A stretch of DNA of 64,000 bases from an uncultured delta proteobacterium (GTDB lineage Bacteria > Desulfobacterota > Syntrophia > Syntrophales > UBA2185), in NCBI GenBank assembly GCA_963695875.1, contig CAVOID010000010.1:64001-128000 (forward strand). Direction: 5' to 3'. Positions 7,621-18,495 of this stretch are shown piece by piece. Made by a program: the position numbers and the translations under genes. Below the pieces are notes generated by a model. It had not been told where the DNA came from and ran no database searches. It saw nothing but the letters and a program-made list of their open reading frames with translations. The first letter of the stretch is position 1; every line of letters starts with the position of its first letter.

Positions 7621-8516
7621 TGCTTGTCGCTCGCAGCCGGCTCTCCAATTTCCTTCAAGAGTAGTTCAAGCTCCTCCCGGTTAAACTGATACCTCCTGCG
7701 GCAGAATTCACAAGTCACCTCGGCTTCTCCCTGTTCGGCAATCAGGGCGGCTATGTCTTTGCTTCCAAGGGATATCAGGACACGCTCTATCCTTTCCCGG
7801 TTGCATGTGCACTTCAGGATAAGCTCTCTATTGTCCAGGGTGTGATAGGGAATCCCCTCGAAAATGATTTCCAGCATATCTTCCGGGGTCTTGCCGGAGC
7901 GCAGTATCTGTGTGACCGGCGGCAAGTTTTCGAGGCGTGTGATTAATTTGCCGACAATCTCTTCGTCAGACGGCGGAAGTGACTGAATCAGGAAGCCGCC
8001 GGAAGCGCTCACTACTCCTGTCGGTTCGACAAAGACACCAAGCCCAACGGCTGAGGGGATCTGCTCCGATTCAGCAAAATAAAAGGCAATATCCTCTGCG
8101 ATCCCGCCGGTACGTAACTCTACGATGCCTTTATACGGTTCCCCCAAGCCTATGTCTTTCATTACGGTGAGAAATCCCTTTTGGCCCAGCACCCTGGACA
8201 CATCCAGCTTCCCTTCCTTCAACGGCACGTCGGCATCGGGCACTGCCACAAAGCCCCGTACTGCTCCGCTGCTATCCGCTTCCACGATTATCTTCCTGAG
8301 GGGGCCGTCCGCCTCAAACTTGAGGGCCAGCCGTTGATCATCCTTCAATAGGGCCGCCATCATTACACCCCCGGTCAGGGCGCGTCCCAGCGCAGCACAG
8401 GCTGTAGGTGAAGTGCCGTGCAGATGACAAGCGTCATTTACAAGGTTGGTGGTCACGCAGGCCAGTCCCAATACATTCAATTTTTCACTGATGACCCTAA
8501 CCAGGTAATTTTTCAT
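7617..8516 (-). CDS. hslO: Hsp33 redox-regulated chaperone
   Basis: [12 protein letters not shown], CxC and CxxC Zn ligands (CTC, CEFC). Confidence 0.95.
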
Positions 8517-8534
8517 GAACGGCATTCCTTTTTT

Positions 8535-8569
8535 TGTCATTGCGAGGCATGAAATGCCGTGGCAATCCC
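8535..8569 (+). repeat. REP-like repeat, TGTCATTGCGAG...GGCAATC family
   Basis: Related copies at 37401, 52792, 54065 (inverse half) and 19387. Confidence 0.6.
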
Positions 8570-8678
8570 ATCATATTTCTTCGTATCTCTCCCAACAAAC
8601 TTCCCCTCTCTCATCGAGGGAAAGGGAACCGGGTTGTTTCGGGTCTATGTCTTGAACCAGCCTGTATTTCATATGACA

Positions 8679-10251
8679 TTATGAGGATTCAGCGATTTCC
8701 AGAATCTTATCCACATTGAAGACCCGCTTTTCCCGGCGCGTCATACAGAGAGCCTCCAGGCCGACAAAAGGATGGCCATTGTATTCCATGTCGCCGACGA
8801 CCAGGGGCCTGATAAGGCGTCGGGACTTCTCATCCTTGGCCTTGAGATACACGATTTCCAGGGTCTGTTTTTTCATGATGGCCTTCTCGAGAAGCTGCAT
8901 TTTCTTTTCCCTGGGCAACTGCCGTTCAGCCCGGTCGTACTGACAGCGTGTCAGGAATTTCACCACCTGCCAGTCCATCAGGATGTGTTTCTTCTGCAGC
9001 GGCTTCATCAGGACAATGCCGTCCAGAGTAGTGCAGCGGGACAGGGCCACATACATCTGGCCGTGGGCGAAGGTACCTTTGCCTACGTCAATGATAGCCC
9101 TCTCAAAGGTCTTCCCCTGGCTTTTGTGGATCGTGACGGCAAAGGCAAGCCTTACAGGAAACTGGGTAAACGATCCTACAGATTTGGAGGTAAGCTCACC
9201 GTTCTTGAGATAAAAATGAAATATCTCCCACGTATAGGGTTCAATTTCCACCTTCTTACCGTTATCCAGTCTGGCAATGATGATATCCTGTCCTTCTTCA
9301 TCCTTATTGATGCCTACCATTTTTCCCACAGTACCGTTCACCCATCGTCCCGATGAATCGTTGTTGAGGAGCATGATCTGGGCTCCCTTCTTTAGCTTGA
9401 GCTCCAGAGCCGTCGGCAGGTATTGCTCGCCAAAGTCGCCTTCAACGATGCCATAGACCGACCGGGTCCTGCCGGGCAATTTTGCAAGCTCCTCCTCATT
9501 GAGACGATCGGCCATCTCGTTTGTGGTAGTGAGATAAATGTAAAAATCGTCAGGAGGGGCTACGAAGCTGGGAGCGAAAGCGCTGATTGAGCTGAACGAG
9601 ATCATTATCGGTTACGGTGCGGTTGCGGATGGTGTTCAGGAGGCGGATAAACTCGTCGTCCTTCTGACGGTAGATTTTTTCCAGTTCAACGAATTCCCAG
9701 TCCAGACCCTGAAAGGCCCTCGCGCTGAAAAAGTATGGGGTCGTGTAATGTTCCCGGAAGATTTCCCTTTCATGACCCGTCACGACGGGCGGAAGCTGAT
9801 AGAGGTCGCCGATGAAGATCATCTGGACGCCGCCGAAGGGAAGTTTCTCGTCAGGGCCGTTGAGGCGCAGGAATTTATCCATGCAATCTAAAAGATCCGC
9901 CCGCACCATGGAGATCTCATCGATGACGATCGTCTCCAGCTTCCTGTAAACATTTTTTTTCTCATCACGAATTTTTTTACGAATTGCCCGCAGGGTCACA
10001 TCGGGCTTGAAGCCAAAGAAGGAATGAATCGTCTGCCCCCGCACATTGACAGCGGCCACGCCCGTCGGCGCCAGGACAACCGCCTTTTTGTCCGTATGTT
10101 CGCAAAAGTAAGTGAGCAGAGTAGACTTCCCCGTTCCCGCCCGACCTGTGATAAAGACATTCCTGTGAGTCTTCTCCATGAAATCCAGGGCACGCTGGAA
10201 CTGGGGATTGAAATCGATGGCAGACATATCGGTGGCTTTTTTTGCTTTCAT
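8679..10251 (-). CDS. Pif1/RecD-like SF1B helicase with C-terminal WYL-like domain; one frameshift near 9578
   Basis: TGRAGTGKS, DEISM, GDLYQLPPV, TIHKSQG, YVALSR; C-terminus AI..V.I.Y...S.R.IRP...A.C..R.E.R.F.VDKI is WYL-like. Confidence 0.88.
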
Positions 10252-10378
10252 CTTGGGTGGAACTTCGGTTTATTTTCCATGTTTACCATCTTAATCTTAA
10301 TAAGTGAAATATGGCAAGCGATTTGCGATAAGTGGAAAGAAATATGACCGTTTTTCCATGTTTTATGTTATAATATAA

Positions 10379-10450
10379 AATAAGTGGAAAATCCGTCCGC
10401 CTATATGTGATTATATGGCGGACAATTTTCCACTTATTACACTGTTAGAG
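10379..10450 (+). promoter_or_regulatory. Putative attI site / array leader with long inverted repeat
   Basis: GTTAGAG at 10444-10450 is the exact complement of cassette-1 R'' CTCTAAC (11030-11036); perfect 14-bp IR AATAAGTGGAAAAT/ATTTTCCACTTATT (10379-10392/10425-10438); extended -10 TGTTATAAT just upstream. Confidence 0.65.
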
Positions 10451-10456
10451 GTTCAA

Positions 10457-11035
10457 ATGGACTATTGGCAACAGCTTATAGCAATTATACTTACGCCCAC
10501 GTTATCAGTAGCTGCACTGGCCTGGATTTTAAAATCCTTGTTCAGTAGTGGACTACAGCGAGATCTTGAACGTTATAAGAGAGAGTTAGATGCCAAGCAA
10601 TTTGAACAGCAGACACGATTCTCCCTGATTCACCAAAAGCGAGCTGAAGTGATTTCAGAACTGTATGCTTGTCTTGCACGCGCAAAGGCGCGGCTTGGAG
10701 AGTTAGTCGCTATTTTTCAGCCCGGTGGGCAATCCCTTATCGAAAAAAGGAAAGTAACTGCTGAGGCATATAATCAGGCAAACTCATATTTTCACGAACG
10801 TAGGATCTTTCTGCCTGAGGAAATTGCTGAGAACGTAGATGCAGTTCTTGAAGCTATGAGAGATGCATTCGTAGAGTTTGATACCGCCCAAATGGGAAAC
10901 GAAGAATACAAACCAGACAACACGGGGCTTTGGATACAATCCTTTAATAAAGTACGGGACAAATTGCCACCGTTAATGAAAAAAATGGAAGAACAGTTTC
11001 GTTTTGAAATAGGTGCTATCGATAACAACCTCTAA
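10457..11035 (+). CDS. Integron cassette 1: N-terminal TM plus coiled-coil protein of unknown function
   Basis: GAGG RBS and ATG 10457 right after GTTAGAG; stop TAA lies within the attC R'' box. Confidence 0.75.
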   Translation: MDYWQQLIAIILTPTLSVAALAWILKSLFSSGLQRDLERYKRELDAKQFEQQTRFSLIHQKRAEVISELYACLARAKARLGELVAIFQPGGQSLIEKRKVTAEAYNQANSYFHERRIFLPEEIAENVDAVLEAMRDAFVEFDTAQMGNEEYKPDNTGLWIQSFNKVRDKLPPLMKKMEEQFRFEIGAIDNNL

Positions 11036-11103
11036 CCTCATGCTTTACTCGGACTGGTGCTACGCTGCCGCTCCGCATCAGCCGGTAAGCATGGCCGTTC
11101 GCA
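11030..11103 (+). mobile_element. attC site 1
   Basis: CTCTAAC ... ATGCTTTAC/GTAAGCAT arms ... GTTCGCA. Confidence 0.85.
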
Positions 11104-11112
11104 GGAGTTATT

Positions 11113-11562
11113 ATGGTTAACTTTCAACGAAATGGGGCTATAAGCAATACGCATGTTGGCAATGAATTCGAGGCTAAGGCTAAATCGTTTTTTGCTACAC
11201 AGGGTGTTATGCTTGAAAAAAATATATCAATTGAAATAGGTATTGAAGGCAAGAAAAAAGCACATAAATTTGATCTCGGTAATTCGGCGGATAAAATCAT
11301 AGTAGAATGTAAATCTCATACTTGGACTGAAACAGAAAATATACCCAGCGCGAAAATGACATCATGGAATCAAGCAATGTATTATTTCTTTGCAGCGCCA
11401 CGCGGTTACAGGAAGATTTTCTTTGCTCTTAAGCATTATAGCAAAAAGCATAAACAAACTTTAGCAGCTTACTATCTCAGAATTAACGACCACTTGATAC
11501 CTAGTGATGTAGAGTTTTGGGAGTATGACGAAGATAAAAAAACAGCACAAAAAATAAAATGA
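11113..11562 (+). CDS. Integron cassette 2: stand-alone PD-(D/E)xK nuclease-like protein
   Basis: GNEFE ... HKFDLG ... IIVECKSH; AGGAG RBS. Confidence 0.7.
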   Translation: MVNFQRNGAISNTHVGNEFEAKAKSFFATQGVMLEKNISIEIGIEGKKKAHKFDLGNSADKIIVECKSHTWTETENIPSAKMTSWNQAMYYFFAAPRGYRKIFFALKHYSKKHKQTLAAYYLRINDHLIPSDVEFWEYDEDKKTAQKIK

Positions 11563-11564
11563 AC

Positions 11565-11629
11565 TGCGAACAAGCCGCTCAAGCCGATCGCGGCCCGCTG
11601 GGCCGCTCCGGCTTAGCTTTTCGTTAGGC
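11565..11629 (+). mobile_element. attC site 2
   Basis: TGCGAAC (complement of upstream GTTCGCA) ... GCTCAAGCCG / CGGCTTAGC ... GTTAGGC. Confidence 0.9.
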
Positions 11630-11642
11630 CGAGTTAAGAAAT

Positions 11643-12438
11643 ATGTCAGAAAATGCTTTTTACGTGTATCCAGGACAGCCATTTATTGGTGAAGCTATTA
11701 TACACTTGCTTTTGGCATTTAATAATGAACCAAATAGTAAGGGTAGACGTTCGATTAATGAAGGGGAACATTCACAAATCGCTTATGCTTTGATAATGAT
11801 TGCTTTGGAAAGCATCATTAAAGTTAAACTCAATGAGAAAGATATAGTCGAGCCGGCAAAGACAGAAGACTTATTTGAACAAACAGTTGAGAAGTTCACT
11901 AAAGAGCATGGAAGTTTTGAACTCTGGGAATGAGTTAAAAATATTGAGAAACTCAATCGTTCACTCTGCATATTTTGAAAGGAATGCAAGAGGTGGGTAT
12001 ATTTCCAAAGCTACGAAGAAGAAGTTGAAATCCTCATATTATTCACCATATCTTGATCTGGATGAAGAATGCACAAAGAAATGGCGGCTTACTATCAATC
12101 CATTGAATGTTTCGAGGTATGAGGCCTTCGTCGGTTTGATGTTTTTTTATTGGTATGGCAAAGAAACCAGTGTTTGGAAAAGCAACAATCCTCTTGATAC
12201 ACCTTATGTAGATTGTCGAATGAAGTATAATATCCAGTGGATTAACAGAAATGATTATCAACACCTTGTTGGCCACGGCAAGGATTTTAGTTATCTTATT
12301 GGATATATGTCAGGCCGTTTATCAGAGAAACATCGTACGATATTAGTTGGCCTCGCAAATGAAGCACTTGGCATTGATTTAGATTCCTCTTTAAGAGTTG
12401 CCACTGGTATACTTGATATGTTCGCGCCCAGACTTTGA
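11643..12438 (+). CDS. Integron cassette 3: HEPN-like protein, split by one extra G at 11926-11928
   Basis: Removing one G gives ...FELWNELKILRNSIVHS..., with upstream IALES helix and RxxxxH motif; both ORFs lie between the same two attC sites. Confidence 0.6.
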
Positions 12439-12448
12439 AGAAGGTTAG

Positions 12449-12504
12449 CCCTAACAAAGTCAATCCAGCCGATCACTACGCTCCGGCTGATTTTTTCGTT
12501 ATGT
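12449..12504 (+). mobile_element. attC site 3
   Basis: CCCTAAC ... AATCCAGCCG / CGGCTGATT ... GTTATGT. Confidence 0.9.
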
Positions 12505-12520
12505 TCAAGGAGGATTTATC

Positions 12521-12982
12521 ATGATTCAAATGGTGACTATCCTTATAGCCGTAGTATCCCTCGTTATATCTTTCATAGTTCATCCTGCAGGGGCATGGAT
12601 TCCAATAGTTCTCGCAGACCTCGTTATCTGTATAAACTTATGGGCTGCAAAGCAAAAATATAGATTTAAATATCTCCCAGACTTATCACCAGAAGCAAAT
12701 GACCTTTTGCAGCATTACGGCCACTACTTCGCGATGCCATTTGCTTCAAAGGATTTCAGTGCAAGTGCGGCTACGAGTCAATTCGCTGGGATTATAATTG
12801 CCATCATTGGACTATTTAGAGGCTTTTGGTGGGCAATAGCTCTCGCAGCCGCAAATTGGTTTTTAATGGGTTTTGTTGCTGTTTCTCTCAGTCCGGTATC
12901 CCTATTAGTTGAGTCAACTGCTTTGCAGATAGTACATGATGAAGTTGTTGAATTTATTAATTCACAGCGTATTCAAAAATAG
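12521..12982 (+). CDS. Integron cassette 4: multi-TM membrane protein of unknown function
   Basis: AGGAGG RBS; about 4 hydrophobic segments in 153 aa. Confidence 0.7.
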   Translation: MIQMVTILIAVVSLVISFIVHPAGAWIPIVLADLVICINLWAAKQKYRFKYLPDLSPEANDLLQHYGHYFAMPFASKDFSASAATSQFAGIIIAIIGLFRGFWWAIALAAANWFLMGFVAVSLSPVSLLVESTALQIVHDEVVEFINSQRIQK

Positions 12983-12987
12983 ATAAA

Positions 12988-13042
12988 ACATAACCAGTCA
13001 ATACAGCCGATCGCTACGCTCCGGCTGATTTTTTCGTTATGC
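12988..13042 (+). mobile_element. attC site 4
   Basis: ACATAAC (complement of GTTATGT) ... GTTATGC; nearly identical to attC3. Confidence 0.9.
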
Positions 13043-13071
13043 CTTAAAGATATTTATTTCAATGGGGTCTT

Positions 13072-13857
13072 ATGCTTAAAATTCAAAGATATATATCTGA
13101 TGAATTGACACATTTTGTTGGAAAAAGCCTTTCTAGTGAAAGTGATCAATACAACCTGTTGGTCAATATTCTTAATTCAGGATGGCTGACTCATCCTCCT
13201 CATGAACACACTGACAGAAATTCCGGTGGTTTAGCTCTAAGCCGGCACTTAAAAATAAGCGAAAATCTAATGTATTCCCCAGAAGTCATTTGCTTTTGCG
13301 ATATTCCCCTTGATGACATTGGACTGCATGTTACAAAGTATAGCCACGTTGGTCTCGCTTTTAGAAAATCATTTTTAATTGAAAAAGGTGTCAATCCAGT
13401 TTTTTATATTTCTAAGGATTCCAAAGTGAGATATTGGCCTAGTGTTGACGAACCAAATAATTTTTTAAAAATACATCGTTCTGAATTGTTTGACACGATG
13501 ATCGATAATTATCAAGACCTCGTTAAAGAGCTCATGATATATTTCAAAGACCTTTTTTATCAGTCAGCCGAAGTTATTGCTTCAAAGGTACTTCAGGATA
13601 AAATCAGAAAATTTCAGGACCAACTGTTTGAACTGGAAAGGTTTCTAGATTTCCACATATTTAGCTATTTAAAGTTTTTTGACAGCTCTAAATCTGAGGA
13701 CGATCCTGAGAATTATTATATGGAGCGTGAATGGAGGATGATTGGTAATCTTCAATTTGATATATCTGATGTTCGCCGGATCTTTTTGCCTGAGCACTAC
13801 GCTGAACATTTCCGAAGAGATGTTCCGGCTTATTACGGGCAACTAACTTTTGTTTAA
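13072..13857 (+). CDS. Integron cassette 5: AbiGi-family (abortive-infection-associated) protein
   Basis: LTHFVG, ICFCDIP, Y..VGLAF.K, G.NPVFY, YYMEREWR motifs. Confidence 0.75.
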   Translation: MLKIQRYISDELTHFVGKSLSSESDQYNLLVNILNSGWLTHPPHEHTDRNSGGLALSRHLKISENLMYSPEVICFCDIPLDDIGLHVTKYSHVGLAFRKSFLIEKGVNPVFYISKDSKVRYWPSVDEPNNFLKIHRSELFDTMIDNYQDLVKELMIYFKDLFYQSAEVIASKVLQDKIRKFQDQLFELERFLDFHIFSYLKFFDSSKSEDDPENYYMEREWRMIGNLQFDISDVRRIFLPEHYAEHFRRDVPAYYGQLTFV

Positions 13858-13860
13858 GCT

Positions 13861-13916
13861 GCATAACAAAGCGTTGGAACCGATCGCTTACGCTCCGGCT
13901 CAACTCCGCGTTGGCC
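13861..13916 (+). mobile_element. attC site 5
   Basis: GCATAAC (complement of GTTATGC) ... GTTGGAACCG / CGGCTCAAC ... GTTGGCC. Confidence 0.88.
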
Positions 13917-13956
13917 TAAAATGAATATTAAAAGGAGACAATAAATGGCACATTAA

Positions 13957-14133
13957 TGGGGTCGGACCAAGATAAGTAGTAGGTATCACAAAGAATAGGG
14001 TTTAAAAACGGTCTATATTTAGCCTTAAACTGCCGATTTTGGCCACAAAAATATACTCCTAAGAATGATTGCTTGCAGAAAAAACCTATAAATCCGTAGG
14101 ACGCTTGTTCCTCGCACCAGTGATTTTTTCGTT
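13957..14133 (+). repeat. ~180-bp direct repeat copy 1, ending in a decayed attC
   Basis: Starts TGGGGTCGGACCAA, aligns with 14907-15091, ends ...GCACCAGTGATTTTTTCGTT. Confidence 0.85.
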
Positions 14134-14152
14134 CGCTTATAAATCATAAATA

Positions 14153-14181
14153 TTGACGTTTAGACGTTATGCCGTTATAAT
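14153..14181 (+). promoter_or_regulatory. Sigma70 promoter of the RHH/RelE cassette with overlapping short direct repeats
   Basis: TTGACG-17 bp-TATAAT; GACGTT/GACGTT/GCCGTT repeats (candidate antitoxin operator). Confidence 0.75.
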
Positions 14182-14209
14182 GCTTTTATTATAATTAGGA
14201 GGTAATATT

Positions 14210-14444
14210 ATGGCGACATTGGCGAAGCGAGCCACGATATACTTTGACACCGACCTACACAAAGCTCTGCGGCTTAAATCTGTTGAAACCTCTCGATCTG
14301 TGTCCGAGCTTGTAAACGAGGCCGTTAAAGAAGCCCTTGCTGAGGATGCTGAGGATCTCAAATCGTTTGACGAAAGGGCGCGCGAACCTCTAATAAGCTA
14401 CGAGGAAATGATCAAGAGGCTTAAAAAAAGATGGCCGAATATAG
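14210..14444 (+). CDS. CopG/RHH antitoxin (extra A in the A7 run near 14425; corrected end KRLKKDGRI*)
   Basis: KRATIYFD..LHKALRLK...SVSELVNEAV; overlaps the toxin start. Confidence 0.8.
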
Positions 14445-14688
14445 AATCTATTTCAAGCGTTCGGTTTGGAAAGACTTTGAAGGAATTTCGAAAAAGGATT
14501 TAAAACGAATTCTTCAACGCATCGAGAATCTTAAAAAAAATCCCAGGCCCACCGAATGTGAAAAGTTGACCGGTCAAGACAGATATCGTTTGCGGCAAGG
14601 TCGATACCGAATTGTTTACTCTGTACAAGATAATGACCTTACTGTGTGGGTCGTAAAAGTTGGACATCGCAGTAACGTATATCGCTGA
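14431..14688 (+). CDS. RelE/ParE family toxin
   Basis: NPRP..CEKLTG...YRLRQGRYRIVY...VVKVGHR. Confidence 0.92.
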   Translation: MAEYRIYFKRSVWKDFEGISKKDLKRILQRIENLKKNPRPTECEKLTGQDRYRLRQGRYRIVYSVQDNDLTVWVVKVGHRSNVYR

Positions 14689-14710
14689 AGCGAATCGGGT
14701 AGCTTTCCCT

Positions 14711-14830
14711 AATTGAAGCTCTCCGCAGTAAACTGCGGAGAATCTTCGATCCATAAGGAATAATAATGTTCCCCATTCGCTCGCTTACCCCGCAGCAAGC
14801 TGCGGGGAATGCGCTCGCTGCCGGATTCAA
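14711..14830 (+). mobile_element. Non-autonomous IS200/IS605-like palindromic element (PATE-like)
   Basis: Two related hairpins CTCCGCAG-TAAA-CTGCGGAG and CCCCGCAG-CAAG-CTGCGGGG; ends TTCAA; no transposase. Confidence 0.55.
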
Positions 14831-14897
14831 TCTATACTCAAAGCACGGAGATAATATGTACTGCTTCAAAATCGTTATCCTTCATGAATGTTCAAGG
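14828..14897 (+). repeat. Duplicate of the alkD-like gene 5' end
   Basis: 14862-14897 is identical (36 nt) to 15883-15918; similarity extends back to CAATCTATACT. Confidence 0.85.
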
Positions 14898-14906
14898 AAT
14901 TGAAAT

Positions 14907-15091
14907 TGGGGTCGGACCAAATAAGTAGTAGGTATCATAAAGAATAGGGTTAAAAAACGATCTATATTTAGCCTTAAAATTGCCAATTTCGGCCACAAAA
15001 ATATACTCCTAAGATACGATTGCTTGCAGAAAAAAATTAGGTCATCTAATCTATAAATCCGCTTATTCCTCGCACTGGTGATCTTTACGTT
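14907..15091 (+). repeat. ~180-bp direct repeat copy 2, ending in a decayed attC
   Basis: Aligns with 13957-14133 and diverges immediately after GTT. Confidence 0.85.
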
Positions 15092-15167
15092 ATGAATGAA
15101 AAATATGATTGATAATTCAGCCCATAATATCTATTATTAGAAAATAGCAAAATCTAAAAACAAGTTA

Positions 15168-15419
15168 ATGAAAAAACGAAAACTACTTGAAAAAATACTC
15201 GCGGGTTCTAAAAATATTCGATTCGCCGAAGCAACCGCCCTTGCAGAGGCGTTTGGCTTTAGGCTGGATCGTATCAACGGCAGTCACCATATTTTTGTAC
15301 ATCCGAACATTCCAGAGTTAATTAATTTGCAGGATGTCAAGGGTAAAGTAAAACCGTATCAATTAAAACAGCTTCTAAGCATTATAGAACAACACAACCT
15401 TCAAATGGAGGATCAGTAA
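15168..15419 (+). CDS. hicA: HicA family toxin (cassette)
   Basis: GF..DRINGSHHIFVHP...GKVKPYQ. Confidence 0.9.
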   Translation: MKKRKLLEKILAGSKNIRFAEATALAEAFGFRLDRINGSHHIFVHPNIPELINLQDVKGKVKPYQLKQLLSIIEQHNLQMEDQ

Positions 15420-15637
15420 TGAAAGATTATCATATTAATATTTTTTACAGCGATGATGATGACGGTTATATTGCAGATATTCCTGACCTGCGTCATTGCT
15501 CGGCCTTTGGTAAAACTCCGGACGAAGCTCTTTCAGAGGTTTTAAAAGCAAAAAGATCCTGGCTTGAATCAGCTCATGCAAATAAAAAAACCATCCCGAA
15601 GCCTCACTATCGTCCGGCGATTTACCAAGTAGCTTAA
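15419..15637 (+). CDS. hicB: HicB family antitoxin (cassette)
   Basis: GYIADIPDL..CSAFGKTPDEAL; TAATG overlap with hicA. Confidence 0.9.
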   Translation: MKDYHINIFYSDDDDGYIADIPDLRHCSAFGKTPDEALSEVLKAKRSWLESAHANKKTIPKPHYRPAIYQVA

Positions 15638-15734
15638 ACTATTTTACCACCTAGTGATTAGCCTCTTCATAACACCTATCAGGCCTCCTGATGTCAATAG
15701 ATAAATGTATCCCTGAACGAAGAAAGGGTTCACT

Positions 15735-15812
15735 TATCCAGGACCAGGTAAAGATGCATTCCACGGCAACGACAATATCCTCACGAAAGGGAGCAATGAC
15801 TTTGAGAAAGGC
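15735..15812 (-). pseudogene. IS110-family transposase fragment
   Basis: AFLKVIAPFREDIVVAVECIFTWSWI resembles the N-terminal RuvC/DEDD region of IS110 transposases. Confidence 0.55.
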
Positions 15813-15877
15813 GTCGTCAAGGCGACTTTTTCTGCAGACTTGTTGGGCCAGCAATCTATACTAGAGCATGGAGAAAT

Positions 15878-16609
15878 ATGGATGCTTCAAAATCGTTATC
15901 CTTCATGAATGTTCAAGGGATCCATGCAAGATTACAGTTGCTTGGTGATCCAAAAAGAGCAGAGGTGCTGCAGCGATACTTCAAAACAGGACCAGGAGAA
16001 TACGGGGAGGGAGATGTATTTGTCGGTATCCGTGCTCCGGAGATAAGAAAGCTAGCCAAAGAATACCAGGCACTTTCCCTTTCAGAGACGGTAAAATTAC
16101 TTCACTCCTCCATCCATGAATCAAGAGCGCTGGCACTCTTGATTCTGGTTCGTGCCTACGCCAAAGGAGATGCTTCTCTTCAAGAGAAGATTTATAATCT
16201 GTATCTTCAGAACACTCGGTTCATCAATAACTGGGACTTGGTGGATATCTCGGCTGAACATATTGTCGGTTCTCATTTGAGATATCTAAGCAAGGCGCCG
16301 CTCCATGCCCTGGCAGCATCGAACCTGTTGTGGGAACGCAGGATTGCAGTAATGGCAACATTTCACTATATTAAGCATGACGAGTTTGCCGAGACATTGC
16401 ATATTGCGGGTATGTTGCTCAGCGATACAGAAGACTTGATTCACAAAGCAGTTGGTTGGATGCTCCGGGAGATCGGCAAACGTGATCACATATCAGAGGA
16501 AGTCTTTCTAAGGGCACACTACAAGCTTATGCCGCGAACGATGCTCCGGTATGCTATTGAGAGGTTCCCGGAAGATTTAAGGCAACGGTATTTAAAAGGG
16601 AAAGTATAA
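15878..16609 (+). CDS. DNA alkylation repair protein (AlkD-like)
   Basis: YFKTGPGEYGEGD, INNWDLVD, HKAVGWMLRE, MPRTMLRYAIE. Confidence 0.92.
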   Translation: MDASKSLSFMNVQGIHARLQLLGDPKRAEVLQRYFKTGPGEYGEGDVFVGIRAPEIRKLAKEYQALSLSETVKLLHSSIHESRALALLILVRAYAKGDASLQEKIYNLYLQNTRFINNWDLVDISAEHIVGSHLRYLSKAPLHALAASNLLWERRIAVMATFHYIKHDEFAETLHIAGMLLSDTEDLIHKAVGWMLREIGKRDHISEEVFLRAHYKLMPRTMLRYAIERFPEDLRQRYLKGKV

Positions 16610-16635
16610 ATGACGCATCACAAGGTTGGTTATGA

Positions 16636-16890
16636 ATGAAGACATTTTTTGTCGCCGCTACTGAAAGAGGAACCGTGGTCACGTCAGCCAGGGTCGCCCT
16701 GGTTGTCGGATCAATCCTCGCACTGATCAACTATGGCGACCGCATCTTTCTGCACGGCAACATGGGCACACTGGACTGGGTCAAGCTCGCTCTTACCTAC
16801 TGCGTGCCGTATTGCGTGGCCACATACGGCGCCGCCAGGTACGCCACAAGACATATCAGGAACAAAGAACACAACCCAACCATGGAGTGA
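16636..16890 (+). CDS. NrtS-family small membrane protein
   Basis: ALVVGSILALINYG...LTYCVPYCVATYG. Confidence 0.75.
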   Translation: MKTFFVAATERGTVVTSARVALVVGSILALINYGDRIFLHGNMGTLDWVKLALTYCVPYCVATYGAARYATRHIRNKEHNPTME

Positions 16891-16957
16891 GTCTGACCCT
16901 AGTAAAATATAGACTTATTCCCTTTGTTTGGTAAATGAAATAAAGGAGGAGATGATT

Positions 16958-17359
16958 ATGCCACGAACAATTCATATGGCAGCTGCCCTGCCGGCCCCCC
17001 CAGATAAACTCTACGACATGTATCTCGATCCGGAATTACATTCCGCAATCACCGGTGCGCCTGTTTCCATTGGAGCAAAAGCCGGGGCGAAGTTTCTTGC
17101 CTTCAACGGAATGATTCAGGGAACAATCCTTCAGGTGGTTCCTAAACGACTGATCGTACAGTCCTGGAGAGCAAAGCACTGGAAGGCTAATGACCTTGAC
17201 TCAACTCTGGTCCTATCATTTTGGCCGGAAAGGCGAGGTACGCGGATAGAACTGGTTCACGTCAACGTAGCGGATCATGACTTCGCGGGCGTTAGCCACG
17301 GCTGGGAAATCTATTATTGGGCGCCCTGGAGAGAGTATCTGAAGAAGCACCGGCAATGA
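16958..17359 (+). CDS. SRPBCC/Aha1-like protein
   Basis: LIVQSWR, GTRIELVH.NV, GWEIYYW.PW. Confidence 0.85.
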   Translation: MPRTIHMAAALPAPPDKLYDMYLDPELHSAITGAPVSIGAKAGAKFLAFNGMIQGTILQVVPKRLIVQSWRAKHWKANDLDSTLVLSFWPERRGTRIELVHVNVADHDFAGVSHGWEIYYWAPWREYLKKHRQ

Positions 17360-17391
17360 GAGAAAATGGCAAGCCGGAAAGGATCTGATCA

Positions 17392-18495
17392 ATGGCTCAC
17401 CATTCCGATACGCAAATGCATAAGATTCAGGCGGCAGTATTGCGCAGGAGGGGCGGCCCTTTGAAGATTGAATCCCTCGAAATGGAGGGTCCGCGGGATG
17501 ACGAGGTCCTGGTGCGCATCGTTGCCTCAGGCATCTGCCATACCGATATAAGCTTCGTGGACGGTTGGGACGAGACCGACGGCCCGATAGTGCTGGGGCA
17601 TGAGGGTGCGGGTGTAGTGGAGCAGGTCGGCAAAAGCGTGAAGAGTGTCAGGCGCGGCGATCATGTCGTGCTCTCCTACCAATCCTGCGGCCGCTGCCGT
17701 AAATGCCGGAGCGGACACCCTGCGGATTGCGAAAATTTCTACGAGGCGAACTTCGGTTTCGCACGCCTGGACGGCAGCAACGCACTCAAGCGCAGCGGCG
17801 TGCGCGGGCATTTCTTCGGTCAGTCATCATTTGCCACCCACGTCCTGGCAACAGAACGCAATATTGTCAAGGTTCCCAAAAAATTAAATCTGGAGGTCCT
17901 GGCTCCGCTGGGTTGCGGCCTGCAAACGGGAGCCGGCACCGTGTTAAATTCGCTGGCGGTCCCGAAAGGAGCAAGCATCGCTATCTTCGGTACGGGAGCA
18001 GTCGGCCTTGCGGCAGTCATGGCGGCGCGCATTGCCGGGGCCAACCCGATCATAGGTGTCGACATTAAACCCAGGCGTCTCGAACTCGCCCTGGAATTGG
18101 GCGCCACCCACGTGATAGACAATCGCCGTGACAAAGCAGACTCACGCATCACCGATATCACCGGCAGTGGGGTTGATTACGTGGTGGAAACCACCGGTGA
18201 TTCGAAGATGTACCGACTGTCCATGGATATGTTGAATCCCCATGGCACCACGGCCTTTCTCACCGGCATAAGCGGCCCGGACTCTCTGCCGGAAAGGCGG
18301 ACAACCCTCAGCATAATCCAGGGCGACGCCGTGCCACAGCGCTTTATCCCTAAGCTAATCGCACTTTACCAGGCAGGACAGTTCCCGTATGACCGTCTCT
18401 TGAAATTCTATGACTTCAGCGAGATTAATAAGGCCATAGCCGATTCCAGACGCGGCGACACGATCAAGCCCGTACTGCGAATCAGCGAGACGTGA
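17392..18495 (+). CDS. Zn-dependent (aryl-)alcohol dehydrogenase
   Basis: GICHTD, GHEGAG, CGRCRKC, GHFFGQSSF, GTGAVG. Confidence 0.92.
   Translation: MAHHSDTQMHKIQAAVLRRRGGPLKIESLEMEGPRDDEVLVRIVASGICHTDISFVDGWDETDGPIVLGHEGAGVVEQVGKSVKSVRRGDHVVLSYQSCGRCRKCRSGHPADCENFYEANFGFARLDGSNALKRSGVRGHFFGQSSFATHVLATERNIVKVPKKLNLEVLAPLGCGLQTGAGTVLNSLAVPKGASIAIFGTGAVGLAAVMAARIAGANPIIGVDIKPRRLELALELGATHVIDNRRDKADSRITDITGSGVDYVVETTGDSKMYRLSMDMLNPHGTTAFLTGISGPDSLPERRTTLSIIQGDAVPQRFIPKLIALYQAGQFPYDRLLKFYDFSEINKAIADSRRGDTIKPVLRISET

Follow-up and report, generated by a model that had tools for sequence, protein, structure and literature searches.

Integrase-less cassette arrays and defence genes carried by integron cassettes are both already known and in print. 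[quoted passage not shown] (2016; PMC4889954), whose account of these clusters includes the loss of the integrase gene (intI) among the origins proposed for them, mentions recognizable intI pseudogenes near only 15 of 279 CALIN and specifies that most of the attI sites were not searchable there. In the part of the same survey that deals with sedentary integrons (PMC4889954), these are defined by more than 19 attC sites or by their presence in all genomes of a species. As regards the defence genes, the paper entitled "Mobile Integrons Encode Phage Defense Systems" (bioRxiv 10.1101/2024.07.02.601719; PMC12614218) presents, in its general outline, the integron cassettes as anti-phage stores. The present work deals with an array of seven or eight captured cassettes (about 8), located between a PIF1-type helicase gene and a DNA-alkylation-repair gene in a stretch of 64,000 nucleotides, referred to as the window, which covers positions 64,001 to 128,000 (forward strand) of contig CAVOID010000010.1 (assembly GCA_963695875.1) from an uncultured delta proteobacterium of the order Syntrophales (family UBA2185). 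Unless a contig or a locus is named, all coordinates are those of the window.

This array is very likely a sedentary chromosomal integron whose integrase gene has been lost by a clean deletion of about 1.03 kb, the attI site and the cassettes being kept. Its remaining parts would consist of nine intI codons, the former intI-attI spacer with its attI site, five canonical cassettes, a segment devoid of any open reading frame (ORF) and two toxin-antitoxin cassettes. The array has a G+C content of 35-44%, as compared with 47-59% for its flanks. An initial annotation of the window, which had recognized the array as such, overlooked the ORF-less segment, a 120-nucleotide repeat, a fragment of an insertion sequence (IS) of the IS110 family, the true end of the array and the scar left by intI.

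Box Pairs and attC Sites

The attC sites associate an R'' box ending in AAC with an R' box beginning with GTT, 50-150 nucleotides apart, R'' being complementary to the first bases of its own cassette and R' belonging, under integron recombination, to the next cassette. Their bottom strand, once folded, forms an inner palindrome (L''/L') that is imperfect, together with spacers left unpaired and with extrahelical bases. As shown by the anatomy of the array, each cassette entered at a G|TT crossover, and an insertion at this point yields a cassette that opens with TTnnnn pairing with its own R'' and ends in an attC hairpin.

Five consecutive cassettes, all on the plus strand, occupy positions 10445 to 13910, and the opening GTTnnnn of each is the reverse complement of its own closing box, with a single mismatch in cassette 3. 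Cassette 1 (10445-11097) opens with GTTAGAG at 10444 and closes with CTCTAAC at 11030, cassette 2 (11098-11623) is delimited by GTTCGCA at 11097 and TGCGAAC at 11565, cassette 3 (11624-12498) by GTTAGGC at 11623 and CCCTAAC at 12449, cassette 4 (12499-13036) by GTTATGT at 12498 and ACATAAC at 12988, and cassette 5 (13037-13910) by GTTATGC at 13036 and GCATAAC at 13861; the pairing extends over 7 of 7 bases in cassettes 1 and 4. Two other pairs enclose the toxin-antitoxin cassettes located further downstream, namely GTTCGCT at 14131 with AGCGAAT at 14689 (AAT instead of AAC), and GTTATGA at 15089 with TCATAAC at 15667 (7 of 7 bases). All seven pairs had been named in the initial annotation, and a script located every one of them within 2 nucleotides of the place assigned there. 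Considering the four free bases of the opening boxes of cassettes 1 to 5, the matches with their own closing boxes number 4, 4, 3, 4 and 4 (19 of 20), as compared with 1, 1, 2, 3 and 1 (only 8 of 20) with the R' box of the same site. Just one of the 120 possible permutations of the pairing reaches 19 of 20, and the corresponding uniform-base probability is about 6e-11. This count took the place of a looser chain test, in which any GTT located 45-135 nucleotides past the closing box was accepted, and which was dropped because shuffled sequences also gave exact chains of 2-4 links.

The five corresponding sites, attC1 (11030-11103, with a bottom-strand hairpin of dG -14.5), attC2 (11565-11629), attC3 (12449-12504), attC4 (12988-13042) and attC5 (13861-13916), measure 55-74 nucleotides, lie directly 3' of the stop codons of co-oriented ORFs and possess inner palindromes. 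The bottom strand of attC4 shows a 7-bp R box, an unpaired spacer of 5 nucleotides on either side and a stem in which one base is bulged, and this is the textbook picture of an attC site; attC3, 96% identical to attC4 over 46 nucleotides, folds in the same manner, and the minimum-energy fold of attC5 departs from it. In the alignment of attC2 to attC5, 97.9% of the cells of the 12 pairs of the drawn structure are paired and 3 pairs display compensatory changes; none of 500 shuffles reaches the covariation score, and sliding the partners by 1-3 columns lowers the pairing to 12-44%.

A covariance model, R1, was built from attC2 to attC5, and hence is not independent of these sites; attC1, misplaced in the MAFFT alignment of all five sites, was left out. 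At E <= 0.01, R1 finds matches, frequently clustered, in 21 of the 22 genomes of the family; two of them lie beside the intI gene of the relative G012 (C62:12787 and 14386) and four directly 3' of the helicase gene of G002. A regular expression for the attC core (up to 2 substitutions) recovers four sites of the array together with 24 scattered single matches in the genome, and gave no match in the loci of four relatives, where related sites were found later by R1. The same sites were also searched for in the contigs of four sediment metagenome runs (X1-X4), each of which contains at most 11% of the words sampled from the array; stretches left without coverage carry no information. There, the summed depth is 15-372 for the attC3 and attC4 cores, as compared with 0-10 for the cassette bodies, and the loose ends of the contigs start before 12992-12999, i.e., after R'', and after 13038/13039, i.e., at the G|TT of R'. 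The depth of the cores and the position of the loose ends at the crossover indicate that the same site sits between many different cassettes in nature.

Outside the window, the cassette 2 gene occurs in other phyla between a GTT box and its exact reverse complement in 12 of 77 testable loci, as compared with 7 of 231 control windows, and 9 of these 12 loci reproduce the geometry of the window; from this excess over the controls, cassette 2 is deduced to be a travelling integron cassette, circulating across phyla. Such a distribution is difficult to reconcile with the idea that the sites are mere intergenic terminator hairpins, or repeats resembling repetitive extragenic palindromes (REP), scattered between small unrelated genes. 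To its credit, this explanation can invoke attC2, which also fits a terminator-like pattern, the richness of the genome in hairpin repeats and the content of Rfam, which holds no attC family and hence offers no curated model behind the sites (the Rfam scan of 8000-18000 returned a single weak chance match, U6, E 0.23). It leaves unexplained the chain of boxes, the loose ends exactly at G|TT and, as detailed in the next section, the match of the array head to the intI-attI spacers of bona fide integrons and the intI scar, and can be considered hardly conceivable. The sites are attC sites of an integron cassette array, as the initial annotation had claimed; the box chain, the attC anatomy, the covariation, the R1 clusters and the metagenome loose ends all bear this out.

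A solitary hairpin resembling the core of attC3 to attC5 was also detected at G000:C5:37933-37993 (L140 2434-2494, minus strand; R1 score 37.5 bits). Located 3' of a 382-residue ORF, it was considered as a further cassette and discarded, being devoid of AAC and GTT boxes.

The attI Head and the Probable Loss of the Integrase Gene

The region preceding the first cassette, termed the head, comprises on the minus strand a scar of intI (10255-10280), i.e., 26 nucleotides that keep the start codon and the initial ~9 codons (MENKPKFHP), followed on the plus strand by the former intI-attI spacer holding attI (10281-10446), with the crossover at G10444|T10445. Using as a query the 199 bases 10252-10450 ahead of the first cassette, the head was found in 26 of 121 sampled genomes of the order, with 72-90% identity, and the matches stop at query positions 195-198, which correspond to the crossover. 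This head of 195 nucleotides shares 89-90% identity with the intI-attI spacers of G105 and G089. Among seven other head loci, divergence sets in right after ACTG|TTA or ACTG|ATA; three of these heads (L144, L145, L149) stand beside an intact intI of ~330-335 codons, two (L147, L150) beside a broken intI, one (L146) is fused to a 3' remnant of intI and one (L148), a partial head, lies beside the helicase gene. The 330-residue integrase of G105 reaches 431.5 bits on TIGR02249, the cut-off of which is 265.

The locus L144 harbours intI and then the 5' end of the same PIF1 helicase gene that flanks the array of the window, and allows the deletion to be mapped. Positions 10255-10447 of the window align with L144 1501-1696 (89.8% identity), the L144 match starting inside the G105 intI, and positions 10150-10251 align with the 5' end of the helicase gene at L144 370-471. 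The window lacks the 1029 bp of L144 comprised between the two alignments, in which the helicase-intI spacer and intI codons ~10-330 are located. Owing to the alignment of the head with intI-attI spacers and to this junction, the head is, judging from homology, the attI region of a real integron class whose intI gene appears to have been lost by a deletion of ~1.03 kb. The claim that the array had retained its attI site is corroborated by the identity of 89-90% with the spacer found beside intact intI genes in relatives and by the end of this homology at G|TT; the scar of 26 nucleotides is all that remains of an integrase gene at the locus, in agreement with the absence of integrase that had been noticed. 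A tblastn search with IntI proteins of the long type detected no intI remnant in the helicase-array spacer; too short for such a search and derived from the other integrase type, the scar escaped it and was found only through the DNA homology of the head.

Four AAGTG(G/A)AA boxes occur in the head, three of them direct (10302, 10330 and 10382) and one inverted (10428), together with a hairpin of 29 bp (10379-10438; dG -21.5, z -8.45). By analogy with attI1, the boxes and the hairpin may represent putative integrase-binding sites. A promoter-like site at 10353-10381 (9 of 12 positions) is weak, and the whole scan, with 22 such sites, does not rise above the level of shuffled sequences (16.3 +/- 4.3).

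The Search for an Integrase Elsewhere in the Genome

No intI gene was found in the 2.86-Mb assembly, which is estimated to be 82.6% complete. The best TIGR02249 score amounts to 82 bits for a cut-off of 265, and tblastn with three IntI proteins yields at most 31% identity, to Xer-like genes only. Six tyrosine recombinases are recognized by PF00589 in the genome, none of them on the contig C10 (213,860 bases) to which the window belongs, so that the observation of the initial annotation that the window contains no tyrosine recombinase still holds, and the genome-wide search for intI that it recommended came back empty.

The family possesses a second type of integron, characterized by an IntI of 431 residues and an attI core reading GTATATTAATTG|TT. 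In both congeners G001 and G002, the intI gene of this type sits after MgsA, a PALP enzyme and a G3P-dehydrogenase-like (G3PDH) gene, and the array ends at an ortholog of the alkylation-repair gene. None of the MgsA, PALP and G3PDH genes was found in the assembly of the window organism, MgsA being present in the four relatives searched (4 of 4), and the MgsA-PALP-G3PDH-intI locus may simply be unassembled. Other genomes of the order illustrate both situations. G004, which is 100% complete, has no intact intI. G077 (closed, 99% complete) possesses two heads (C1:1453936-1454135 and 2980909-2981106) and no integron integrase at E <= 1e-30, and G045 possesses three heads, only one of them beside an intI. 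Orphan states and states that can be served in trans thus both occur in the order.

Two observations made on these integrases deserve mention. G004 contains a second degraded integron at L142 (G004:C98), where, at 1429-1720, the last 46 codons of an intI of the 431-residue type are joined to attI; the remnant lies, there too, after MgsA, the PALP enzyme and the G3P-dehydrogenase-like gene. Moreover, many integron integrases of the order consist of 430-465 residues and have an N-terminal extension of ~100 residues ahead of the TIGR02249 region, e.g., at L023:9939-11234 in G001 and L057 in G010:C14.

A number of points weigh against the reading of an integron deprived of its integrase, or at least moderate it. 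The folding energies of attC1, attC3 and attC5 (z -1.1, -1.6 and -0.6, respectively) are not far from those of shuffled sequences. R1, built from four of the very sites that it scores, misses at E <= 0.01 attC1 and the two short sites that precede the toxin-antitoxin pairs. The frameshifts observed in cassette 3 and in an antitoxin gene may be assembly errors rather than signs of decay, because they lie in or beside short homopolymer runs. Lastly, the assembly is incomplete and does not contain the MgsA-PALP-G3PDH locus, which bears intI in both congeners; the window organism may accordingly possess an IntI acting in trans, and the frozen state of the array is not proven.

This last point leads to consider the array as a working cassette store, the cassettes of which would be shuffled in trans by an IntI encoded in an unassembled part of the genome. 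The five attC sites are intact, the congener G002 combines a helicase-linked array without intI (C34) with a complete integron elsewhere (C182), G045 has three heads and an intI beside only one of them, the locus that bears intI in G001 and G002 is precisely absent from the incomplete assembly of the window organism, and such a mobilization is discussed by Cury et al. (2016; PMC4889954) in their treatment of CALIN. On the other hand, besides the failure to find intI in 2.86 Mb, the missing integrase type has another attI core (GTATATTAATTG|TT), so that it is doubtful whether this enzyme would insert cassettes at the head of the window; two of the attC sites still contain a repeat and an IS fragment, respectively, and the variants of the array seen in the metagenomes join only within a 70-nucleotide duplicate or a 130-nucleotide repeat, both described below, and never at attC crossovers. 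A service in trans, as assumed in the initial annotation, accordingly has a minor, although appreciable, chance of being correct: the lack of intI and the decay of the array speak against it, though the locus of the second intI type is missing.

Following the reading of a sedentary integron that has lost intI, the array would be frozen for want of a resident IntI, and its promoterless cassettes would be readable only from a promoter located in the head. The two toxin-antitoxin pairs would probably stabilize it. The array would nevertheless be starting to decay, with a repeat and an IS fragment lodged in two attC sites, one R'' box lost and a possible frameshift in cassette 3, and an IntI supplied to it would still find substrates in the five attC sites left intact.

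Flanking Genes and Chromosomal Context

The left flank consists of a gene on the minus strand (8679-10251) for a PIF1-type helicase with a C-terminal WYL domain (Pfam PIF1 5.7e-28, WYL 1.4e-05), which reads as two ORFs, 9550-10251 and 8679-9605. Its ortholog in G004, 82% identical, is a single ORF of 522 residues, with respect to which the window shows one extra base near 9580, not located in a homopolymer run. On the right, the array ends on the plus strand with a last R' box, GTTGGGC (15842-15848), 30 nucleotides ahead of the DNA alkylation repair gene (15878-16609, plus strand; Pfam DNA_alkylation 4.1e-61); in G004, GTTAGGC occupies the equivalent place ahead of the alkylation-repair ortholog. 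Orthologs of the latter gene bound arrays in G004 (91% identity), G012 (88%), G001 (72%) and G002 (70%). The gene is thus closer to those of other genera (G004 and G012) than to those of the congeners, which may reflect an exchange between lineages of the distal end of the locus.

A single contig of G004 contains Hsp33, the helicase gene, an array and the alkylation-repair gene in this order, the flanks sharing 79-91% identity with those of the window at the nucleotide level (blastn) and 80-91% at the protein level (tblastn). Its array of 11 kb comprises an XhoI-type restriction-modification pair, two Mrr_cat proteins, an AbiJ_NTD4 protein, MazEF and three redox enzymes; none of the cassettes of the window is found there, and a 130-nucleotide element is all that the two arrays have in common. 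In G002, an array without intI directly follows the helicase gene. More generally, intI scores above the cut-off in 43 of the 121 sampled genomes of the order and an ortholog of the helicase is present in 56 of them. Eight genomes of this sample carry the helicase gene 33-232 nucleotides downstream of intI, on the same strand; the two genes are 2.2 kb apart in one further genome and on different contigs, hence uninformative, in nine. Two more adjacent cases, G010 and G031, were found beyond the sample (the loci are G105:C174, G021:C12, G115:C18, G075:C5, G058:C7, G028:C23, G098:C61, G084:C109, G010:C14 and G031:C120). The pairing involves both length types of integrase and several families of the order.

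The simplest reading of these comparisons is that the array locus would be an old fixed chromosomal site, i.e., a sedentary integron. The recurrent adjacency of intI and the helicase gene may reflect such an old fixed site or a functional pairing. In the latter respect, a helicase co-expressed with IntI could help to make the single-stranded attC hairpins needed for recombination, and it may be added that, following the deletion, the helicase start codon of the window lies 3 nucleotides past intI codon 9, behind the intI promoter region; that the PIF1/WYL helicase is a working partner of the integron instead of a mere neighbour is nonetheless rather improbable.

The possibility that both the gene order and the missing intI result from an assembly artefact, two arrays having been joined through repeated attC sites or 130-nucleotide elements, has to be weighed against the same comparisons. 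It finds some grounds in the adjacency of the alkylation-repair gene to the other integron type in G001 and G002, in the helicase-linked array of G002, which stops at a contig end, in the repeats of 46-190 nucleotides distributed along the array, and in three single-base frame anomalies grouped within 6 kb, at 9580 (helicase), 11926-11928 (cassette 3) and 14423-14429 (antitoxin), which may represent errors in the assembly consensus and not pseudogenes. The junction of the intI deletion lies, in contrast, in unique sequence and not in a repeat, G004, which belongs to another genus and was assembled independently, displays the same gene order on one contig of 35 kb, the contig of the window extends over 213,860 bases, and contigs from two metagenome runs bridge 14724-14845 to 15873-16000, i.e., the distal array to the alkylation-repair gene. 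Such an artefact is very unlikely, and the order helicase-array-alkylation repair is best understood as that of a fixed integron site.

Proteins Encoded by the Five Canonical Cassettes

Cassette 1 contains an ORF (10457-11035) coding for a protein of 192 residues with one N-terminal membrane helix, as shown by a hydrophobic stretch at residues 6-29; no match was found in Pfam, PADLOC, NCBIfam or PHROG and the atlas gives only clusters labelled "hypothetical". Cassette 4 (ORF 12521-12982, 153 residues) similarly encodes a membrane protein, with about four helices distributed in two hydrophobic stretches (residues 1-44 and 80-132) and no family match in the same four collections.

The ORF of cassette 2 (11113-11562) encodes a protein of 149 residues with the fold of PD-(D/E)xK proteins. 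In the nucleases of this type, an alpha-beta-beta-beta-alpha-beta core bears the catalytic residues D...(D/E)xK. The cassette 2 family, large and unnamed, counts 232 homologs with 57-91% identity and is encoded at 357 loci of the species-level genome set; it corresponds to no Pfam family, and its profile yields no match (0) in a sequence search of the PDB. Residues D54, E65 and K67 are invariant in 27 sequences, and E20 is nearly so. The structure model, built with a predicted local distance difference test score (pLDDT) of 90, retrieves with Foldseek PD-(D/E)xK-type nucleases or their relatives at ranks 1-8 and at most of the ranks below, the leading matches being XisH, SfsA, Cdn1, Cas4 and CdiA-CT; these matches are weak (best E 2.5e-3, template modelling (TM) score 0.54). 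The family may represent an undescribed single-gene anti-phage nuclease.

Cassette 3 carries a HEPN-domain gene that reads as two ORFs, 11643-11933 and 11908-12438. The break is due to one extra base in the G run 11926-11928, and intact homologs of 267-281 residues span both ORFs. HEPN-domain RNases are recognized by an Rx4-6H motif in a four-helix up-down bundle. Residues R102, N103 and H107 are invariant in 15 homologs of the cassette 3 protein, and the window reads RNSIVH at this place. The Pfam HepT-like family gives a weak match (E 0.019) in 3 of the 15 members. The model of an intact homolog (pLDDT 76), when compared using VIA-align, places HEPN proteins in the top rows (Z 8.6-5.5 over 103-123 residues), scores that are moderate for a helical bundle; Foldseek against the PDB returned nothing usable for this model, and the C-terminal ORF has no usable match in the atlas.

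Finally, cassette 5 (ORF 13072-13857) encodes an AbiGi-like protein of 261 residues, recognized by both Pfam (AbiGi, 1.7e-15) and PADLOC (AbiGi, 1.2e-16), which scores 27.6 bits with the NCBIfam AbiGI equivalog for a cut-off of 300. The AbiG abortive-infection system consists of two genes acting together, AbiGi and AbiGii. No AbiGii (PF16873) was found in the genome, in a search that gave no signal in control genomes either.

The cassette mix accordingly appears weighted towards nucleic-acid-targeting and abortive-infection-type proteins (PD-(D/E)xK fold, HEPN and AbiGi-like), a predicted trait, and a defence role is plausible for these three cassettes on the basis of their sequences. The role predicted here fits the published view of integrons as anti-phage gene stores. 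The suggestion of the initial annotation that the cassettes are candidate defence systems was thus upheld in part: AbiGi is recognized by PADLOC and the nuclease and HEPN labels are sustained by fold and motif, whereas AbiGi is the only one of the 10 proteins of the array that PADLOC recognizes, the HEPN gene reads as broken and no function could be assigned to the membrane proteins.

The Distal Part of the Array

The segment 13911-14131 (plus strand), which follows cassette 5, is devoid of any ORF and associates a 130-nucleotide element (13955-14086) with the 3' half of an attC site ending in the R' box GTTCGCT (14131-14137); the 3' part of the segment aligns with attC3 to attC5. The toxin-antitoxin cassette 1 (14132-14710, plus strand) comes next, with a ribbon-helix-helix (RHH) antitoxin (14210-14503), a ParE/RelE toxin (14431-14688) and the R'' box AGCGAAT (14689-14695). 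The toxin is assigned to ParE_toxin (6e-13), with RelE_StbE at its cut-off (27.9 bits), and the antitoxin to RHH families (3e-05 to 6e-03); the cassette has its own promoter-like site at 14153-14181 (11 of 12 positions). The contigs of X1-X4 have one base fewer at 14421-14426, within or next to the A7 run of the antitoxin gene (14423-14429).

The attC site of this cassette is interrupted by a dispersed repeat of 120 nucleotides forming two hairpins (14711-14831, no strand assigned), which has 37 further matches on 10 contigs of the genome and a summed depth of 385-1427 in the four sediment metagenomes, and looks like a miniature inverted-repeat transposable element (MITE) or a REP doublet. Next comes a duplicated stretch taken from the 5' region of the alkylation-repair gene (14828-14900, plus strand; compare 15852-15921), 90-97% identical to the original. 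This duplicate of ~70 nucleotides corresponds to the first ~45 nucleotides of the gene and to 25 nucleotides upstream, and stands before a HicAB unit. Contigs of X2 and X3 join 14845 to 15873 and skip 1027 bases, and forms without the HicAB unit therefore exist. As the joint lies in the duplicate and not at an attC crossover, the loss of this unit points to homologous recombination instead of integrase action.

A second copy of the 130-nucleotide element with a short attC site (14904-15095, plus strand) ends in the R' box GTTATGA (15089-15095) and opens onto the toxin-antitoxin cassette 2 (15090-15673, plus strand), which consists of HicA (15168-15419), HicB (15419-15637) and the R'' box TCATAAC (15667-15673), with its own promoter-like site at 15109-15137 (10 of 12 positions). 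HicA matches HicA_toxin (1.7e-09), and HicB matches HicB_lk_antitox with 3.7e-05, below Pfam's own cut-off. A repeat of ~190 nucleotides, made of the 130-nucleotide element and the short attC site, thus precedes each toxin-antitoxin pair, the copy 14904-15091 being 83% identical to the other. The attC site of the HicAB cassette contains an internally deleted fragment of an IS110-family element (15672-15815, minus strand), the two pieces of which match the two ends of elements of ~1.4 kb present at C7:30004-31472 and C11:223994-225461; in the C7 copy, DEDD_Tnp_IS110 and Transposase_20 are encoded by two ORFs.

The 130-nucleotide element (13955-14086 and 14906-15037 in the window) is conserved at 70-91% across four genera, with copies in G004, G012, G011 and others. 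It precedes a short attC site and usually a toxin-antitoxin cassette, and in both copies of the window its left edge cuts the starts of short ORFs. In the genus g6 (L034:1504-2438, G011), it flanks an IS200-like Y1_Tnp gene (5.3e-11) bounded by inverted GGGGTCGGACCAAG ends; in the window genome, the motif is confined to the array. Two identities proposed for the element were discarded, that of a structured RNA (consensus energy of -4.4 kcal/mol, 0 compensatory pairs in 15 copies) and that of a small minus-strand ORF, which is disrupted by 1-nucleotide indels between copies, as judged by eye.

Comparison with Known Integrons

The general understanding of integrons is left unchanged by the array of the window. 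Its value lies in a clean scar, a defined attI head, a list of candidate genes and the recurrent intI-helicase pairing. An attI head and two integrase types are now defined for an environmental order where integrons are common, and the candidates offered for phage defence comprise the cassette 2 nuclease family, the cassette 3 HEPN family, the lone AbiGi-like protein and two small membrane proteins.

Compared with the anti-phage cassettes dealt with in the mobile integron paper (PMC12614218, in its general outline), those of the window are likewise small single-gene cassettes of the predicted nuclease, HEPN or Abi type, and the sister array of G004 carries a restriction-modification pair, Mrr_cat and AbiJ_NTD4; they differ in that only 1 of the 10 window proteins matches a PADLOC model. 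The IS110 fragment, which sits within the attC site of the HicAB cassette immediately behind the R'' box, recalls the attC-targeting IS1111-attC elements and group IIC-attC introns, so far as these have been described, except that a deleted fragment is all that is left in the window.

Similarly to the sedentary chromosomal integrons, e.g., the Vibrio superintegron, the array occupies a fixed site across genera, possesses similar attC sites and toxin-antitoxin cassettes with their own promoters, and is lower in G+C than its flanks. It departs from them by its restricted number of cassettes, about 8, and by the disappearance of its integrase.

The closest resemblance is with the CALIN, as portrayed in the pages of Cury et al. 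(2016; PMC4889954) that introduce them. Five attC sites of the array are intact and two or three others damaged, the contig bears no intI and most of the cassettes are of unknown function, as in CALIN. In contrast to the latter, its origin is visible, in the form of a 26-nucleotide intI scar and a complete attI-bearing head. With its scar, its head and intact relatives available for comparison, the array of the window thus provides an example, caught in the act, of how integrase-less arrays arise.

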